A stretch of DNA of 64,000 nt from an uncultured Thermoleophilia bacterium (GCA_963715985.1 CAVQSP010000017.1:32001-96000), one strand, 5' to 3'. Positions 43,573 through 48,879 are shown, numbered from the stretch's first letter. Made by a program: numbers and translations. Notes: generated from the sequence alone by a model not told the origin.

Positions 43573-44058
43573 ATGTCGGGCGAAGACTTGAAGGCTAGGA
43601 CGCTCGAAGGCTTCGAGCGCATGTTCAACCAGGGCGATCTGACGTACGTCGAACAAGCTCATGCGCCTGCCGGAGTCGATCATCAGGAGCCTCTGGGGAC
43701 GGACTTCAACGACCACCTCAAGGACGTCATCACGAAGATGCGGGAGGCCTTCCCCGACCTCCACTTCGAGGTGCACACCATCGTGCAGGAAGGCGATATC
43801 GTCGCGACTCGCTCGACCATGACCGGCACTCATCTTGGACGCTTCGCCATGGGCCCCCTGGCGGCGATCGAGCCGCAGGGCACGAAGGTCTCCGTCCGCC
43901 ACATGCACTTCTTCCAGTACAAGGACGGCAAGGTCACGGACCTCTGGCACGTGTGGGACACACTGGGCCTGATGCGCCAGCTCGGCGCCCCGGCGCCCGA
44001 CATGCGCTTCCCGGTGCCGCAGCCGGCCGGTGCGGCAGCGGAGCGACCCCCGCGATAG
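43573..44058 (+). CDS. SnoaL-like ester cyclase
   Basis: AFPDLHF..EGDIV..TGTHLG..DTLGLMRQLG. Confidence 0.88.
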   Translation: MSGEDLKARTLEGFERMFNQGDLTYVEQAHAPAGVDHQEPLGTDFNDHLKDVITKMREAFPDLHFEVHTIVQEGDIVATRSTMTGTHLGRFAMGPLAAIEPQGTKVSVRHMHFFQYKDGKVTDLWHVWDTLGLMRQLGAPAPDMRFPVPQPAGAAAERPPR

Positions 44059-44064
44059 CGCGGG

Positions 44065-44107
44065 CGCGTGCTCGCTCACGCCCCGGCGGGGCGTGAGCGA
44101 GCACGCG
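44065..44107. terminator. Perfect 20-bp hairpin just after the cyclase gene
   Basis: CGCGTGCTCGCTCACGCCCC-GGC-GGGGCGTGAGCGAGCACGCG. Confidence 0.7.
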
Positions 44108-44232
44108 GCGCACGCCGGAGGTCGGGGCACTGCCGCCGCGCCGAGCACGGGCACCTCGTGGCCGGTCATCAGGAGCCGCACATCGGTCGGCAGCACGGTC
44201 GCTTCTTGCACGAGAATACGGGAGGGACACTG

Positions 44233-44435
44233 CTGATCCGACCCAACTACGAGTCCGACGCCGGAAAGCGCACGGAGATCCCCGCCGAGCGAACTGGGGA
44301 CGATGCCCTTCGTGCCCTTCGAAGAGTACAGCGAGATGCTCAAGCGCTGCCTTCTGACGAAGCGCGAGAACGGCATCCTCGAGGCCAGGCTGCACACGGA
44401 CGGCGACAGCATGCAGTGGGCGCCCCGGCGTTCTG
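44233..44435 (+). pseudogene. N-terminal remnant of an enoyl-CoA hydratase-like protein
   Basis: PFEEYSE..KRENGILEARLHTDG..QW, truncated. Confidence 0.45.
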
Positions 44436-44611
44436 CTGATATGGCCCGCACTCCCGTCAAGCGGCAAAGCCCTGCCACCCGGTCCGAAGAGACCGGAGAG
44501 AAGGCCCGCCGGAGGGACGCCGCACGCAGCCTGCGACCGTCAGTCAGTCTGATATGCGGGGATCTTCGCGCCCCAAGACATCTCTCCGTCGCCGGCGGAG
44601 CGCGGCTCTAG

Positions 44612-46541
44612 GCGGAAGTTTTCGCCCCTGCCGCCCTCGTTTCTCGCCCTGAGCAGGGGTGAAGCTCTCCCTGAGGCTGGATGGTGTAGACACTAAAGAT
44701 GCTTGACAACGCCGTGGCATGGTGCCATGAATAGGCCATGTCGAAGCGAACCGGCAGCGTTCATGTGACCACCACCCGTCGCCACTACAAGGGCAAGGTC
44801 TACGAGACCACGCTGCTGCGGCGAAGCTATCGCGAGGGCGGCAAGGTGCGTAACGAGACGGTCGGCAACCTCTCGCATCTGCCTCCCGAGGTGATCGCCG
44901 CGATTCGCGCCATGCTGGCTGGCCGGCGGCTCTTCGACGCCGACTCAGAGCTGGCCGTGACGAGCTCGCTGCCTCATGGCCATGTGGCCGCGGTGCTTGC
45001 GGTGGCGCGCTCGCTCGGCCTGGAGCGCCTGCTCTCCCGGGAGCGCTCGCGAGAGCGCGACCTTGCCCTGGCCATGACTTGCCAGCTCATCATCTCCCCG
45101 GGCTCAAAGCTCTCACTCACGAGGCGCTTCTCGCAGACCACCTCGCGGCCGAGCTTGCGCTTGGCGAGGTCTCCGAGGCTGAGCTGCTTGACGCCATGGA
45201 CTGGCTCCTCGCTTGCCAGGGGCGCATCGAGACCACCCTCGCTTCTCGCCATCTCGCGGAGGCGGGTTCGTGCTCTACGACCTCTCGTCTTCGTATGTCG
45301 AGGGCCGGCACTGCCCGCTGGCCGCGCTCGGCCACTCGCGCGACGGCAAGAGAGGCAAGCTGCAGGTCAACTGGGGCATGATCTGCTCTGCCGAGGGCCG
45401 TCCCGTGGCGATCGACGTGCACCCCGGCAACACGGCCGACCCCGAGACCCTGCAGCGCGATCGAGCGCGTGAGCAAGCGCTTCGGGATTGCCCGTGTGAT
45501 CTTCGTCGGCGACCGGGCGATGATCACCGAGGCCCACGCCGAGACGCTCAAGGAACTCGGTGCCGGCTTCGTCAGCGCCTTGAAGAGCGCCCAGATCCGC
45601 ACCTGGTCGGCTCGGGCGACTACAGCTCTCGCTCTTCGACCAAGCCAACCTGGCCGAGATCGCCTCGCATGAGTTCCCCGGCGAGCGCCTCATCGTCTGC
45701 CGCAACCCGGCGCTGGCCGCCGAGCGCGCCCGCAAGCGCGAGGAGCTCCTGGCCGCCACCGAGGCCGAGCTTGAGAAGGTCGTGCTCATGGTGGAGGGCC
45801 CACGGGGGCGGCTGCGCGGCGCTCCGCCGGGGTGATCGGCGAGCGCGTAGGGCGCGTCTCCAACCGCTACAAGGTGGCCAAGCACTTCGAGCTCACGATC
45901 GAAGACGGCGCCTTCCGCTTCGAGCGTAAGACGGAGCGCATCGCCGCCGAGGCCGCGCTCGACGGCATCTACGTGCTGCGTACCACCTGCTCCGGCTCGG
46001 AGCTCTCCCCGCAGGCCGTGGTGCGCCTCTACAAGCAGCTCAAGATGGCCGAGCGCGCGCACCGAACCATGAAGAGCGCACTCTGCGTGCGCCCCATCCG
46101 CCACCACCTCGAGGAGCGCGTGCGTGCCCACTTCTTCCTCTTCATGCTCGCCTACTACCTGCTCTTCGAGTTGCAGATGCGCCTTCAGCCGATGCTCTTT
46201 GCCGACGATGCCCCGCAAGCCCCCGCCGACCCGGTCGCTCCCGCCGTGCGCTCGCCAGAGGCGCTCGCCAAGGCGGGCAGCGCCCGCACGGCCGATGGTC
46301 TGCCGGCCTACAGCCTGGCCGACCTGCTCGCCGAGCTTGGCAGCATCTGTCGCAGCGAGCTGCGCATCGCTGACGGCGAGCACACCTTCAGCCGCCTCAC
46401 CGAGGCCAACGAGATCCAGGCCAAGGCGCTCGAGCTGCTCGGTGTCAAACTCGTCGCGTAGACAGAACCCGCCACCTCCCAGACGGAAAGAACCCCTGCT
46501 ACCTCAGGGAAACGGCTCATCCGAAGGCCGAAAACTTCCGT
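44612..46541 (+). mobile_element. IS1634-like insertion sequence
   Basis: Terminal IRs GCGGAAGTTTTCG / CGAAAACTTCCGT; flanked by CTAG at 44608-11 and 46542-45. Confidence 0.88.
44738..46461 (+). pseudogene. IS1634-family DDE transposase with multiple frameshifts
   Basis: LLRRSYREGGKVRNET, LYDLSSSYVEG, GHSRDGK, FVGDRAMI, DGIYVLRT, ERAHRTMK, RVRAHFFLFMLAYYL spread over several frames. Confidence 0.85.
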
Positions 46542-46656
46542 CTAGGAGCGGGCGTGACCGCCCCGCAAGGGCGGCTGCCCATAGCAGAAACGCGCATGCC
46601 GGCTGGCGTCGTGCGGTGCGGCGTCCCTCGAGCGGGCGCGTATGCGCCCGGCTCCT

Positions 46657-47733
46657 TCAGTCGGCGGTGGCCACCGACCAGAGGAAGCAGGCGAGCTCAC
46701 GCGCCGCCGCCACGGTGGCGACGTTGGGCGGCTTGCCGCGCCCGCGCAGGCGCGTCTGCAGGCGGAAGAGCCGGTGCTGGGCGCGCCAGGCGGTCTGCAG
46801 GACGTGGTCGCTCTGGCCTGCTTGGCGCCGCGCGAGCGCGGCTCCCCGGCGCGGCGGGCGCGCGTAGTGGTGCGCCGCCTCGACGAGCAGCCGGCGGGCA
46901 TGCGCGGAGCCGGTCTTGGTGATCGCCCCCTGCGACGGACTCTCGCCCGACTGGTGCAGCGAGGGCGTGAGCCCGAGCCAGGCGGCCAGCTGCGGGGCGC
47001 GCTCGAAGCGCCGCCAGTCGTGCACCTCGAGGTGCAGGGCGAGGGCCGTGAGCGTGTCGATGCCGCGGAAGCAGCGCAGGCGCGCGACGGTCGGCCAGAA
47101 GGCATCCTCGAGCGCCAGCTGCGAGAGCCGCTGGTCGAGGACCTCGCGGCGGGCGAGCAGGCCATCGACGGCGGCCAGACCGTCGAGGTAGGCGAGCTCG
47201 GTCGCCGCGTGGGTGAAGCGCTGGCCGGCGAGCCAGCGGCGATGCGCCTGCGTCCAGGTGCTGCCCTCGTAGACGCGCCCGTGGCGCAGGAGCAGCTTGG
47301 AGACGCGGTGGCGGGCCCGCATGAGGTCGCCCCGCAGCTGCTCACGGGCACGGCTGAGGTCACGGGCCGCCTCGGCTTCGGGCGGCGGCACGGCGACGGG
47401 GGTGAGCGCGTCCGCCATCAAGAGGCGCACCAGCAGCTCCGCGTCCTTGCGGTCGCTCTTGACGCGGTCGCCCGCGGCCCGGGGCGTCTTGCCCGGGGCG
47501 ATCACCTGCAGCGCGATGCCCGCCTCACGGGCGGCGCGGTAGAGCCCGTACCCGGTCGGCCCCGCCTCGTAGCAGGCCCGAACCGGCTGCGGCAGCCCGG
47601 CGAGCCAGGCGACCACCGCCTCGGTGCCGCCGCCGAAGCGCCGCCGCGTGAGCTCGCCGCTGGCGGCGTCGAGCGCCGCCGCTTCGGTCGAGCGGGCGTG
47701 GACATCGAGACCTGCCCATGACAAGGTTGCCAT
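46657..47733 (-). CDS. IS110 family recombinase (DEDD plus catalytic Ser)
   Basis: GLDVH, CYEAG, KSDRKDA, GLTPSLHQSG, VAAARELA. Confidence 0.95.
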   Translation of the reverse strand: MATLSWAGLDVHARSTEAAALDAASGELTRRRFGGGTEAVVAWLAGLPQPVRACYEAGPTGYGLYRAAREAGIALQVIAPGKTPRAAGDRVKSDRKDAELLVRLLMADALTPVAVPPPEAEAARDLSRAREQLRGDLMRARHRVSKLLLRHGRVYEGSTWTQAHRRWLAGQRFTHAATELAYLDGLAAVDGLLARREVLDQRLSQLALEDAFWPTVARLRCFRGIDTLTALALHLEVHDWRRFERAPQLAAWLGLTPSLHQSGESPSQGAITKTGSAHARRLLVEAAHHYARPPRRGAALARRQAGQSDHVLQTAWRAQHRLFRLQTRLRGRGKPPNVATVAAARELACFLWSVATAD

Positions 47734-47856
47734 CGCCGGACCCTCCTTCGTATGGGGTCAGCCGAAGCTCGTCTTCGGCCAGACAAACCCCCGTCATATG
47801 CGAACGGGGTCCGGTCTTGCGTCAACGTTCTCGGCGGACAGAGACAGCCATATCGT

Positions 47857-48879
47857 CTAGCTGCCTTCTCTCAGCAGCCTCGCCAGCGCGCGGCCTTGCT
47901 CGGCCTCAGCGTCGCTCGCCTGCTCGCCGGCGAGCTGATGCACCGTCGCCCCGACGGATTCGAGCCCGCCGATGGCCTCGATGTGCCCGGCTGAGAGGAA
48001 GGAGTAGACGTCTGCGACTGCGTTCTCGGAGACGTAGGCGCGCAGCACCTCTCCCAGGGCGTGCTCTCGCCACCACTGCCTGACCGGCTGCCCGTCCGGC
48101 AGCTCGGTGTCCATGGTCACGTCGTGATCGCGGATCGGCTCGACTGGGGCCAGCAGCCCGTAGAGCCCCGAGACGATGAGTCCGCAGCGGCGCATCGTCT
48201 CGCGATCCTCGGTGCTCAGTGAGCTCAGCCCCGCGGCCTCGTAGAGCGGGCCGTCGTAGCGCTCGAGGGCCGGCAGGTAGGCGCGACGGTGCCCATCTCC
48301 GCCGAGATCGGGGCCGGCGGCCTCACCGACGAGCTCCGCAAGCGCCCTGCGCGCCTCCCCAAGCCCGGCCCCCGCCTCGCCGAGCAGCGCGAGCGCCGTC
48401 ACCTGACGCCGCCACGCCGGATCGCCGCCGGGCCGCTTGCTGGCGCTGTCCGGAAGGAGGATGAGGCTGGACGCCAGGCTCTTCCGGGCGGCGCGGGCGG
48501 CGTCGCTCGGCGACGCCTTCGCGGGCGTGCGCCTCTTCGCGGCCGGTGCGCTGGTCTTCGCTCGTGCCGCGGGACCTGCGCCGCGACCGCGCGCGGCCGG
48601 TGCGTCCTTGCGGAACGTCACCGACTGGTCTCTGCGGTCGGTCCTGACGAACGACCAGCCCGCATCTCGCCAGCCCCGGGCCTGCGGCTGGGTGCCGCTC
48701 GCCTGCCACCACTGCGCGTGGTTGGCGGCCGCGGCCGGCAGCTTGAAGCCGAGGATGTCCTGTAGCTGATCGAAGGTCAGGGTCACGGAACTCGCGTCCA
48801 GGCCCTTGAGGTACCGCGTCAGCGGGTCGTATCTGCTCGGACCCTCCGGCACCTTGGCCGGTTTTCCGCTGGGCGTCAC
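47857..48879 (-). CDS. Fusion of a small N-terminal DUF7662-like domain with a YaaA/DUF328 domain
   Basis: RYDPLTRYL..LTFDQLQDILGFKLP..WW..WRDAGW; PDSASK, PALERYDGPLY, SGLYGLL. Confidence 0.75.
   Translation of the reverse strand: MTPSGKPAKVPEGPSRYDPLTRYLKGLDASSVTLTFDQLQDILGFKLPAAAANHAQWWQASGTQPQARGWRDAGWSFVRTDRRDQSVTFRKDAPAARGRGAGPAARAKTSAPAAKRRTPAKASPSDAARAARKSLASSLILLPDSASKRPGGDPAWRRQVTALALLGEAGAGLGEARRALAELVGEAAGPDLGGDGHRRAYLPALERYDGPLYEAAGLSSLSTEDRETMRRCGLIVSGLYGLLAPVEPIRDHDVTMDTELPDGQPVRQWWREHALGEVLRAYVSENAVADVYSFLSAGHIEAIGGLESVGATVHQLAGEQASDAEAEQGRALARLLREGS

Follow-up and report, generated by a model that had tools for sequence, protein, structure and literature searches.

The analysed window, a stretch of 64,000 nucleotides from an uncultured Thermoleophilia bacterium, carries what is very probably an IS110-family insertion sequence of IS1111-type architecture, which encodes a DEDD/serine recombinase and a 3' bridge (seek) RNA, and whose RNA gene has been split in this copy by a nested insertion sequence (IS). 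The mechanism is known, and a guide RNA that spells out both the insertion site and the joined ends of the element is expected for the IS110/IS1111 family; what is new is another bridge/seek RNA element, with a layout like that of the published IS1111-type RNAs. The relevant features, with coordinates counted from the first nucleotide of the window, are as follows.

44436..47858, minus strand: composite of the IS110-family element, the nested IS and the 6-bp duplication of the latter; ends set against the uninterrupted C14 copy in the same genome
44436..44437, minus strand: core dinucleotide AG at the right end, from junction comparison of both copies
44438..44445, minus strand: right subterminal inverted repeat GCCATATC, 8 bp, partner of GATATGGC
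44454..44461, minus strand: invariant CTTGAC box near the right end, candidate -35 of a predicted promoter completed only at the circle junction
44512..44525, minus strand: 3' strand of closing helix P1 (GUGCGGCGUCCCUC), pairing with 46616-46629
44547..44556, minus strand: donor-loop 3' guide CAUAUCAGAC, equal to right-end CATATC, core AG and left-end AC (the circle junction)
44557..44575, minus strand: donor-loop hairpin UGGGG..CCCCG (helix 6), unchanged among 31 relatives, with pairing in 100% of cells
44576..44582, minus strand: donor-loop 5' guide GAUGUCU (GACGUCU in the C14 copy), complementary to left-end AG-ACG
44591..44607, minus strand: 3' strands of helices P3 and P2 (AGCCGCGCUCCGCCGGC), with 5' partners now 1.9 kb away
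44607-44612 and 46541-46546: 6-bp duplication TCTAGG of the nested IS, from sequence reading
44613..46540, plus strand: nested, probable IS1634-family element, 1928 bp, inverted repeat CGGAAGTTTTCG, matched by NCBIfam NF033559 and missing from the C14 copy
46542..46548, minus strand: target-loop 3' guide CUCCUAG, equal to left flank plus core; family-wide only CUAG is read
46549..46581, minus strand: target-loop inner hairpin, P4 (UGGGC/GCCCG) with an apical stem, UGGGC..GCCGCCC/GGGCGGU..GCCCG
46582..46590, minus strand: target-loop 5' guide UUUCUGCUA, complementary to recombinase-sense T-AG-CAGAA (core plus right flank)
46616..46629, minus strand: 5' strand of P1, the long closing helix (GAGGGACGCCGCAC), pairing with 44512-44525
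46657..47733, minus strand: intact DEDD recombinase, 358 aa, from Pfam PF01548 and PF02371, NCBIfam NF033542 and alignment to ISCro4/IS621
47847..47854, minus strand: left subterminal inverted repeat GATATGGC, 8 bp, pairing with GCCATATC at 44438-44445
47857..47858, minus strand: core dinucleotide AG at the left end (CT on the plus strand), overlapping the TAG stop of the upstream gene
47857-48879, minus strand: upstream ORF, a DUF7662/YaaA-like gene (Pfam domains), its TAG stop overlapped by the left core

The element, its ends and a sibling copy

The IS110-family element itself measures 1489 bp, with both copies of the shared AG counted. An uninterrupted sibling in the same genome (C14:181457-182944) is 98.6-99.4% identical to the window copy and runs without a break across the insertion point, in agreement with the first-pass annotation, which had described a nested IS interrupting the element and had proposed other copies as a check. 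The sibling has the same ends, and its flanks fit the TCTG-CT-AG motif (plus strand) that it has in common with the window copy; the same left-end (LE) and right-end (RE) motifs are present in 63 related elements. All sequence strings quoted in that annotation were found in place on re-reading. The element, its ends and its second copy are observed directly in the assembly, a metagenome-assembled genome (MAG) with 7.3% estimated contamination, in which the two copies may come from different cells.

AG is the sole dinucleotide common to both junctions in both copies. The core had earlier been given as CT, which is correct for the plus strand and becomes AG when read in the sense of the recombinase gene. 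Both copies lie inside CT-AG-CAGA in the same orientation with only AG shared, and the same rule is followed by the 63 relatives. The terminal extensions are AGAC (4 nt) on the left and AG (2 nt) on the right, the shared AG being counted on each side, or AGACG and CAG if the clade-wide repeat is used; distant relatives have an 11-bp subterminal repeat, ATATGGAATGA. Non-coding sequence amounts to 286-287 nt downstream of the recombinase gene versus 125 nt upstream. TTGAC lies at 15-17 nt from the core in all 47 distinct RE/LE pairs, and a promoter scan returned 0 sigma-70-type promoters in the linear element.

Targeting of stop codons was also considered and rejected: of 52 sites, 16 are preceded in the TAG frame by an open frame of 100 codons or more, versus 18 in a control frame, which is no enrichment.

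Recombinase

The recombinase ORF had been called intact, and its 358 residues indeed align end to end with those of the relatives. The protein matches the N-terminal RuvC-like DEDD domain (PF01548, E 3.5e-15), the C-terminal Tnp domain (PF02371, E 4.8e-19) and the NCBIfam model NF033542, 'IS110 family RNA-guided transposase', at 219 bits against a cut-off of 140. Residues D10, E56, D94, D97 and S262 align with the catalytic residues of ISCro4/IS621 in phmmer, both domain alignments being weak (i-Evalues 0.011 to 23); S262 is the serine of a G-L-x-P-x4-S-G motif. Assignment to the IS110-family RNA-guided recombinase elements is supported. The label 'IS1111-type' is suggested by architecture. 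The RefSeq names of the relatives are only 'IS110 family' or ISEc45, with no IS110-versus-IS1111 label, and a relative on an E. coli plasmid is named only 'IS110 family transposase'.

A conserved, predicted RNA downstream of the gene

The sequence downstream of the gene encodes a predicted structured RNA of ~185 nt, in which the target loop precedes the donor loop. Across 31 sequences, the five helices were paired in 95.2% of cells, versus 31-44% with the partners slid, and 11 pairs had changed on both sides (0/500 shuffles). Compensatory changes affect 8 of the 12 P1 pairs (31 relatives), and at P4 pair 57:87, 22 sequences have G-C and 8 have A-U. An extra basal helix of the donor loop (helix 5, columns 116-119 with 185-188) was 71% paired and unsupported in half of the sequences. 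The observed covariation backs the earlier proposal of a two-loop RNA encoded downstream of the recombinase. Invariant U-G pairs close both P4 and the donor hairpin and would be A-C mismatches on the opposite strand, a pattern that favours the recombinase-sense strand as the RNA.

In distant relatives, ISEc45 among them, a covariance model placed the RNA directly 3' of the recombinase gene and in every case on the sense strand. Its matches in the source genome were a single complete copy, at 109 bits, and two partial ones within the window, at 34 and 27.5 bits; neither this model nor BLAST found orphan RNA copies there. An Rfam scan of 44000-48300 gave no relevant family, its sole match being a chance hit to Prion_pknot (E 0.26). 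As to the IS621-like layout proposed initially, the succession of target and donor loops holds, but the IS621 order is found only on the opposite strand. The guide that complements the top strand precedes its partner, which is the published order of IS1111-type seekRNAs.

The nested IS splits the RNA gene of the window copy

The nested IS is delimited by 12-bp inverted repeats and a 6-bp duplication. NF033559 matches three separate ORF pieces, each in a different frame, at 23.7, 61.3 and 110.3 bits, and the 100-bit cut-off is exceeded by the third alone; the transposase frame is broken in the assembly, and the breaks may be real or assembly errors. The insertion cuts the RNA gene exactly at the 3' target guide, leaving the target loop on one side and the donor loop, together with the 3' strands of P1-P3, on the other. 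Intact RNA can therefore not be made in cis, and the window copy is most likely unable to produce a working RNA by itself. It keeps intact ends and an intact recombinase and, if it moves at all, probably does so only with RNA supplied by the C14 sibling.

It is quite improbable that the window copy is still autonomous, whether by read-through across the 1.9-kb nested IS or by use of its two halves as separate RNAs. The halves do retain every guide, and CCUAGA is still present once on either side of the nested IS; the recombinase is encoded by an intact ORF, and bridge and seek RNAs function when provided in trans, according to Durrant et al. and Siddiquee et al. However, 1.9 kb of the nested IS, in antisense, now separates the strands of helices P1-P3, which are conserved with compensatory changes; the halves score far below the intact copy with the covariance model (34 and 27.5 versus 109 bits), and the parts of the literature covered contain no passage on a working bridge RNA split between its loops. 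We thus favor loss of RNA function in cis. The two copies could then form a natural autonomous/non-autonomous pair, in which the RNA of the sibling would move the window copy in trans, as a 3.4-kb composite with the probable IS1634-family element as cargo, to CT-AG-CAG(A) sites; we offer this only tentatively and consider it rather unlikely.

Guides covary with the ends and with the flanking DNA

The chance of guide matches was assessed with dinucleotide shuffles of the uninterrupted 3' end. The 10-nt donor match to the circle junction, pointed out in the first-pass annotation, was equalled by only 4 of 2000 shuffles. Furthermore, the donor 5' guide agreed with the variable left-end positions 5-6 in 39/42 cases versus 29.3 +/- 1.9, a score equalled by 0 of 20000 shuffles. 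The 8-nt target match reported alongside is present, but taken alone it is within chance (214 of 2000 shuffles with the flanks of the window copy, 227 of 2000 with those of the C14 copy). Reading of the target is established instead because guide and flank covary across the relatives. In 32 distinct lineages, the 5' target guide fitted the right flank at position +1 in 29, +2 in 32, +3 in 31, +4 in 20 and +5 in 5, and the summed score of 117/160, compared with 48.4 +/- 6.0 in shuffles, was equalled by 0 of 20000. The 3' target guide fitted the left flank at -1 in 45/45, -2 in 44/45, -3 in 22/45 and -4 in 3/45, with C, G and T changing together in guide and flank. The fit was poor in four lineages, with a contiguous match of 0 in L007, L030 and L040 and of 2 in L019. 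By these counts, only about 2 bases to the left and 3-4 to the right of the core are read across the family, and the effective target is CT-AG-CAG(A) rather than anything longer.

Could the internal copies of ends and flanks be DNA sites for the recombinase, with the 3' end serving only as a structured UTR or terminator? On its own, the match on the donor side (CATATCAGAC), a repeat of the right end, could be a third protein-binding repeat. However, the target-side guide varies with the flanking host DNA in 32 lineages, which is unexpected for an internal protein site, the helices around the guides stay paired through compensatory changes, and homologues of the recombinase family are experimentally RNA-guided, according to published work. 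We consequently regard DNA sites as extremely improbable and retain the guide RNA.

Empty sites and activity

In the genome of a sister lineage, 8 uninterrupted repeat copies were observed to read GGT-AG-CGCC, exactly as the guides of that lineage specify; these are 8 occurrences among 53 empty repeat sites identified with a one-arm pattern, the exact two-arm pattern having 0 matches in that genome. The idea that the boundaries are mis-set, so that the guide-matching 'flank' bases belong to the element and the match is an inherited internal inverted repeat, is highly implausible, for although copies within one lineage usually agree at the first 3-4 flank bases, as mis-set ends would give, 99%-identical elements differ at flank positions (ATGTAG versus GTGTAG, GGC versus GGG, GGA versus TGA), the 10-nt donor guide covers right end, AG and left end without extra bases, and the cognate word of the sister lineage is found uninterrupted at these empty sites.

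For the element itself, a search for the empty orthologous site with the left flank in 30 relatives gave only short chance matches, a joined-flank search within the loci retrieved gave one match, which was non-orthologous, and no circle junction was seen. A look-up of public runs carrying this sequence gave DNA runs with small shares (at most 0.17), as contigs only, and no RNA run. The genome contains only 2 copies of the element versus 12 unoccupied CTAGCAGA sites, and current activity is therefore unproven.

Proposed mechanism

In the model that we propose, P1 would close the RNA around two internal loops. The target 5' guide (UUCUG-CU-A) would pair with the recombinase-sense strand of T-AG-CAGA and the target 3' guide, (C)CUAG, with the opposite strand of CT-AG. 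The donor 5' guide (GACGUCU or GAUGUCU) would pair discontinuously with the left end (AG-ACGA), and the donor 3' guide (CAUAUC-AG-AC) with the junction of the excised circle, where the right and left ends abut. The RNA-loaded recombinase would then join the circle junction and a CT-AG-CAG(A) site by strand exchange at the shared AG, and insertion would occur in one orientation with no duplication beyond AG. RNA binding, circle formation, serine-mediated strand exchange and the junction promoter are inferred here by analogy with published work on IS621 and IS1111.

Significance

The element cleanly illustrates, in nature, the bridge/seek RNA rule for little-studied, high-G+C soil and sediment Actinomycetota (Thermoleophilia-like MAGs). 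About 30 close relatives differ mainly in a 3-4-nt guide window, with insertion sites that differ accordingly, and thus form a natural reprogramming series. Bridge RNAs encoded at the 3' end are not yet recognised by Rfam, and their mining and annotation could benefit from this series, from the covariance model and from the compactness of the target, which spans about 7-8 bp around a central CTAG, a rare word. Moreover, the interrupted RNA gene is a reminder that an IS110-family copy need not be autonomous even if its recombinase ORF is intact.

Comparison with known systems

IS621, of the IS110 subgroup (Durrant et al. 2024; Hiraizumi et al. 2024; PDB 8wt6), likewise has two internal loops, target then donor, each with two guides that address opposite strands and overlap by the 2 nt of the core, which is CT on the strand copied by the 5' guides; one donor guide pairs discontinuously, and the catalytic D, E, D, D and S align. 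However, the RNA is encoded downstream of the gene here and at the left end in IS621, the guides read opposite strands relative to the recombinase gene, and protein similarity is remote (phmmer E 1.1e-4).

The closest named relative is ISEc45 of Escherichia coli (RefSeq name), with 39% amino-acid identity over the full length. It differs in host phylum and base composition, and shares a ~270-nt 3' non-coding region, a 10-bp subterminal repeat, a TTGACA box adjoining the right repeat, and a UGGGG/CCCCG hairpin after which the right-end sequence is repeated; just past its stop codon there is a weak covariance-model match (28.7 bits, E 0.0036).

For IS1111-type elements, published descriptions place the RNA downstream and, within it, the complement of the top strand 5' of the match to the bottom strand (Siddiquee et al. 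preprint; Durrant et al.); they give the subterminal inverted repeats as 7-17 bp (Durrant et al.), usually 11-13 bp (Siddiquee et al.). Compared with ISEc11, ISPa11 and ISKpn4 (Siddiquee et al. 2024 preprint; Durrant et al. 2024, Fig. 6), the inverted repeat is shorter here (8 bp, or 11 bp in distant relatives, versus the usual 11-13 bp), as are the extensions (4 + 2 nt versus the canonical 7 on the left and 3 on the right), whereas the recombinase is longer (358 aa versus the stated 330-350 aa) and only about 7-8 bp of target are read. The likenesses extend to the DEDD recombinase with a long 3' RNA-encoding region, the subterminal inverted repeats and the guide order with the top-strand complement 5', orientation-specific insertion without real duplication, and the natural reprogramming of close relatives to other targets.

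A second, uninterrupted copy fixes the ends of the element

Genome G000, a MAG of 22 contigs and 4.35 Mb (estimated completeness 88.8%, contamination 7.3%), was queried by BLAST with three pieces of the interrupted IS110-family element at 44436-47858 (minus strand). One further copy was found, of 1488 bp, on another contig (C14:181457-182944); the window copy is 98.6% identical to it over the 1315 nt of the right piece and 99.4% identical over the 177 nt of the left piece. In the C14 copy the two pieces are contiguous, with zero nucleotides between them, which proves that the window copy was interrupted by a nested insertion and fixes the ends of the element. No other IS110-family recombinases were found in the genome by tblastn. 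Both strands of 44436-47858 were read, and every sequence string quoted in the first-pass annotation was present where it had been placed. The parts of the window copy, including the guides in the two internal loops (target and donor) of the predicted bridge/seek RNA, are as follows.

Features of the window copy and of the element nested in it
46657-47733, minus: recombinase ORF, 358 aa, PF01548 and PF02371
46590-46582, minus: target-loop 5' guide, UUUCUGCUA
46581-46549, minus: target-loop hairpin, UGGGC, apical GCCGCCC/GGGCGGU, GCCCG
46548-46542, minus: target-loop 3' guide, CUCCUAG
44613-46540: nested IS1634-family element, 1928 bp, with 12-bp terminal inverted repeats CGGAAGTTTTCG
44607-44612 and 46541-46546: 6-bp duplication TCTAGG bordering the nested element
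44582-44576, minus: donor-loop 5' guide, GAUGUCU, past the nested element
44575-44557, minus: donor-loop hairpin, UGGGG..CCCCG
44556-44547, minus: donor-loop 3' guide, CAUAUCAGAC
44436-44437 and 47857-47858: core dinucleotide CT on the plus strand (AG in recombinase sense), shared by both junctions

In recombinase sense, and with a slash at the border of the flank, the junctions read ggcagct/AG-ACGATATGG ... GCCATATC-AG/cagaacg for the window copy and ttgctcct/AG-ACGATATGG ... GCCATATC-AG/cagactg for the C14 copy. Both copies are inserted in CT-AG-CAGA, that is, TCTG-CT-AG on the plus strand, a comparison with the flanks of other copies that had been put forward in the first-pass annotation. 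The two recombinase ORFs (46657-47733 versus C14:181582-182655) have 13 differences and only two residue changes, M75L and S266P; residue 266 varies across relatives. Such mostly synonymous divergence is unusual for sibling IS copies within one genome and suggests either separate arrivals or a mixed-strain MAG (contamination estimate, 7.3%); because the genome is a MAG, the two copies may stem from different cells.

The window element is placed exactly on the TAG stop of a gene for a DUF7662 and YaaA-like protein (47857-48879, minus, 340 aa), with 44303-44439 (plus) on the opposite side; the shared AG keeps the stop codon of this upstream gene, and the C14 copy likewise sits after an in-frame TAG. 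A preference of the family for stop codons was rejected (16 of 52 sites versus 18 of 52 in the control frame). Contigs from other samples that match the element ends break off at 44432 and 47860, after TCTG-CT and CT-AG (3 records), which is no more than a weak hint. Twelve unoccupied CTAGCAGA sites are left in the genome, and activity of the element today is thus unproven. The palindrome CTAG, central to the targets of these elements, has only 824 occurrences in the 4.35-Mb genome (70% G+C), by rough arithmetic from site counts about 15-fold fewer than base composition predicts.

Terminal sequences are conserved among relatives

One genome per species was scanned, and the best 80 of 215 stretches encoding a relative of the recombinase were retained; these 80 relatives share 36-80% amino-acid identity with it and come mostly from Thermoleophilia, Solirubrobacterales and other soil or sediment MAGs. 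Copies within each of 14 genomes were compared in pairs to locate the limits of identity, and a motif search gave both ends for 63 of 81 elements (the 80 loci and the C14 copy), the remaining 18 being cut off at the end of a contig or having diverged too far from the end motif. All 63 left ends start with AG(A/G)C-N-N-TATG and all 63 right ends finish with CATATCAG or CATAGCAG. The left flank terminates in CT for most of these elements and in GT, TT or CA for a few.

A structured RNA is predicted behind the recombinase gene

The alignment comprised 31 of 42 distinct 3' ends, ten near-duplicates and the distant locus L062 being left out, and helices were called with RNAalifold and by counting pairs.

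Helices of the predicted RNA (alignment columns)
P1, long closing helix: 6-19 with 198-211; 8 of 12 pairs with changes on both sides
P2: 32-38 with 109-115
P3: 41-44 with 102-105
P4, within the target loop: 55-59 with 85-89; 8 sequences have A-U in place of a G-C pair seen in 22
Donor hairpin: 135-139 with 154-158; invariant

Across the 31 sequences, pairing was seen in 95.2% of cells, compared with 31-44% when the partners were slid, and double changes occurred in 11 pairs (0 of 500 shuffles). If the opposite strand were the RNA, two invariant U-G pairs, along with other G-U cells, would become A-C mismatches, which points to an RNA in the sense of the recombinase gene. A fold of the 3' end had been proposed in the first-pass annotation; as a single sequence, the intact 286-nt end gave -156.4 kcal/mol versus -140.2 +/- 5.1 for shuffled sequences (z = -3.2).

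A covariance model built on this structure (R1) found a single whole RNA in the genome, in the C14 copy (C14:182685-182868, 109 bits); the window yielded no more than two fragments, 44512-44652 (34 bits) and 46538-46592 (27.5 bits). In relatives outside its training set, the model placed the RNA right behind the stop codon on the sense strand, and it reached relatives with as little as 36% protein identity (60.9 bits).

The nested element entered exactly at the 3' target guide, with CCUAGA now on either side, and so keeps the target loop, along with the P1-P3 5' strands, 1.9 kb apart from the donor loop and the matching 3' strands. It is most likely that the window copy depends on RNA supplied in trans, an arrangement reported to work experimentally for IS621 (Durrant et al. 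2024) and for seekRNAs (Siddiquee et al. 2024 preprint). The nested element is present in one copy only in the genome (BLAST), and three ORF pieces in three frames match positions 5-89, 132-196 and 318-482 of the IS1634 transposase profile. In low-depth contigs from a freshwater-sediment run, positions 45140 and 45821 each have an additional C; the apparent frameshifts of the transposase may be partly homopolymer errors of the assembly, or real.

Target guides vary together with the flanks

When the uninterrupted 3' end was shuffled with dinucleotides preserved, an 8-nt match to the target arose in 214 of 2000 shuffles with the window flanks and in 227 of 2000 with the C14 flanks, and a 10-nt match to the donor in 4 of 2000. 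Thus, of the two guide matches in the first-pass annotation, the donor match stands alone; the target match is attainable by chance, so that its reading requires comparative support, which the relatives provide.

The 5' target guide was defined as the 7 bases preceding the conserved CUA-UG(G/A)GC. Of the 63 elements, 50 had this anchor together with a right flank of 6 nt or more, the 13 left out being a distant group (L042, L061-L080) and an element whose flank was too short; the 50 represent 32 distinct lineages, each a unique combination of guide and left end. Reverse-complemented, the guide matched the right flank at +1 in 29 of the 32 lineages, at +2 in all 32, at +3 in 31, at +4 in 20 and at +5 in 5. 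The summed score of 117 of 160 compares with 48.4 +/- 6.0 for flanks shuffled among lineages and was equalled in none of 20000 shuffles. The fit was poor for L007, L030 and L040 (contiguous run of 0) and for L019 (run of 2); in L041, a sister copy of L040, the guide fits the flank. L030 is a 93-94% identical copy of L036 in the same MAG and its site has the left flank of L036; its guide (reverse complement AGCA) mismatches its own flank (GGCT), an apparent case of guide drift following insertion, or of locus duplication.

For the 3' target guide and the left flank, 45 distinct cases out of 47 elements were examined; the two matched at -1 in all 45, at -2 in 44, at -3 in 22, at -4 in 3 and at -5 in 10; at -2, guide and flank vary in concert among C, G and T. 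From these profiles, the family reads about 2 bases to the left of the core and 3-4 to the right. The first-pass annotation was therefore right to restrict the 3' target guide to CTAG, only -1 and -2 tracking the left flank family-wide, and the 7/7 match of the C14 copy to CUCCUAG is partly coincidence. In nearly all relatives CUAG is followed by A(C/G) (CUAG-AC; columns 94-99 of alignment A1, window 46541-46546). These are the left-end bases next to the core and thus match the left junction made by insertion; they may be an analogue of the 'handshake' guides of IS621.

Guide-matched bases are present in empty sites of a sister lineage

No orthologous empty site of the window locus was found among 30 relatives, nor was a circle junction of this element seen. 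The elements of a sister lineage (L020-L029, 64% identity) insert into a palindromic repeat, one arm of which occurs 76 times in that lineage's genome with at most 2 mismatches. The 30 fetched loci contained 56 distinct arm sites, 3 with an IS right end in front and 53 without, and 8 of the 53 empty sites read GGT-AG-CGCC, the word exactly specified by the L020-L029 guides (GGUAG and the complement of CGCC). The bases matched by the guides are thus already there before insertion, around a single AG, and the covarying flank bases are not part of the element. Differences at +1 and +3 between copies of 99%-identical elements likewise argue that these bases are external. Sister lineages in two Dormibacteraeota MAGs (L020-L029 and G032 with loci L096-L125) insert into a REP-like palindromic repeat; one lineage has the four guide bases GGCG and the flank CGCC, the other GACC and GGTC, and both flank words are present in empty repeat copies.

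Donor guides match the element ends

The reverse complement of the 9 bases preceding UGGGG was set against the left end for 21 distinct guide/left-end combinations. It matched at position 1 in 5, position 2 in 18, position 3 in 6, position 4 in 20, position 5 in 19, position 6 in 20 and position 7 in 14. At the variable positions 5 and 6 the total was 39 of 42 versus 29.3 +/- 1.9 after shuffling, equalled in none of 20000 shuffles. The pairing is discontinuous, as is that of one donor guide of IS621 in the account of Durrant et al. The 3' donor guide invariably ends in (A)UC-AG-AC, which is the right end, the core and the two left-end bases that come next. The window donor guide differs from that of C14 by one base (C to U), turning G-C into G-U at left-end position 5.

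Proposed mechanism and relation to known elements

The recombinase matches the NF033542 profile ('IS110 family RNA-guided transposase') with 219 bits and is remotely similar to the solved structures of ISCro4 (9t56, E 3.7e-6) and IS621 (8wt6, E 1.1e-4); its residues D10, E56, D94, D97 and S262 (in GLTPSLHQSG) align with the catalytic residues of both. The parts, pairing rules and RNA structure come from the present analysis, and the steps that would connect them follow those described in Durrant et al. 2024, Hiraizumi et al. 2024 and the Siddiquee et al. 2024 preprint. By analogy, the element would leave as a circle with its ends abutted; the donor loop of the RNA would bind the circle junction and the target loop CT-AG-CAG(A), and the recombinase would exchange strands at the common AG.

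All 47 of 47 distinct end pairs have an invariant TTGAC box (window 44454-44461) at 15-17 nt from the right-end core, and circularization would bring GACNNT (A at position 2, T at position 6) to a place 17-18 nt downstream of it. No sigma-70-like site was found in the linear element. TTGAC and GACNNT across the joined ends are a candidate circle-junction promoter, such as is described for both families in section 3 of the Siddiquee et al. 2024 preprint.

Among named relatives, the nearest is ISEc45 (full-length identity 39%; name from RefSeq annotation), which has the same architecture and, in E. coli, a weak match to the covariance model (28.7 bits, E 0.0036). Bridge RNAs are predicted in 93% of IS1111 elements according to Durrant et al., so that this kind of element is already known. 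As the window element does not have the canonical 7+3 terminal extensions of the IS1111 type, it is assigned to an ISEc45-like clade of the IS110 family, and the term IS1111-type is used for its architecture and not for its phylogeny. Its predicted mode of action is that of the published IS1111-type bridge/seek RNA elements, most of whose defining features it has.
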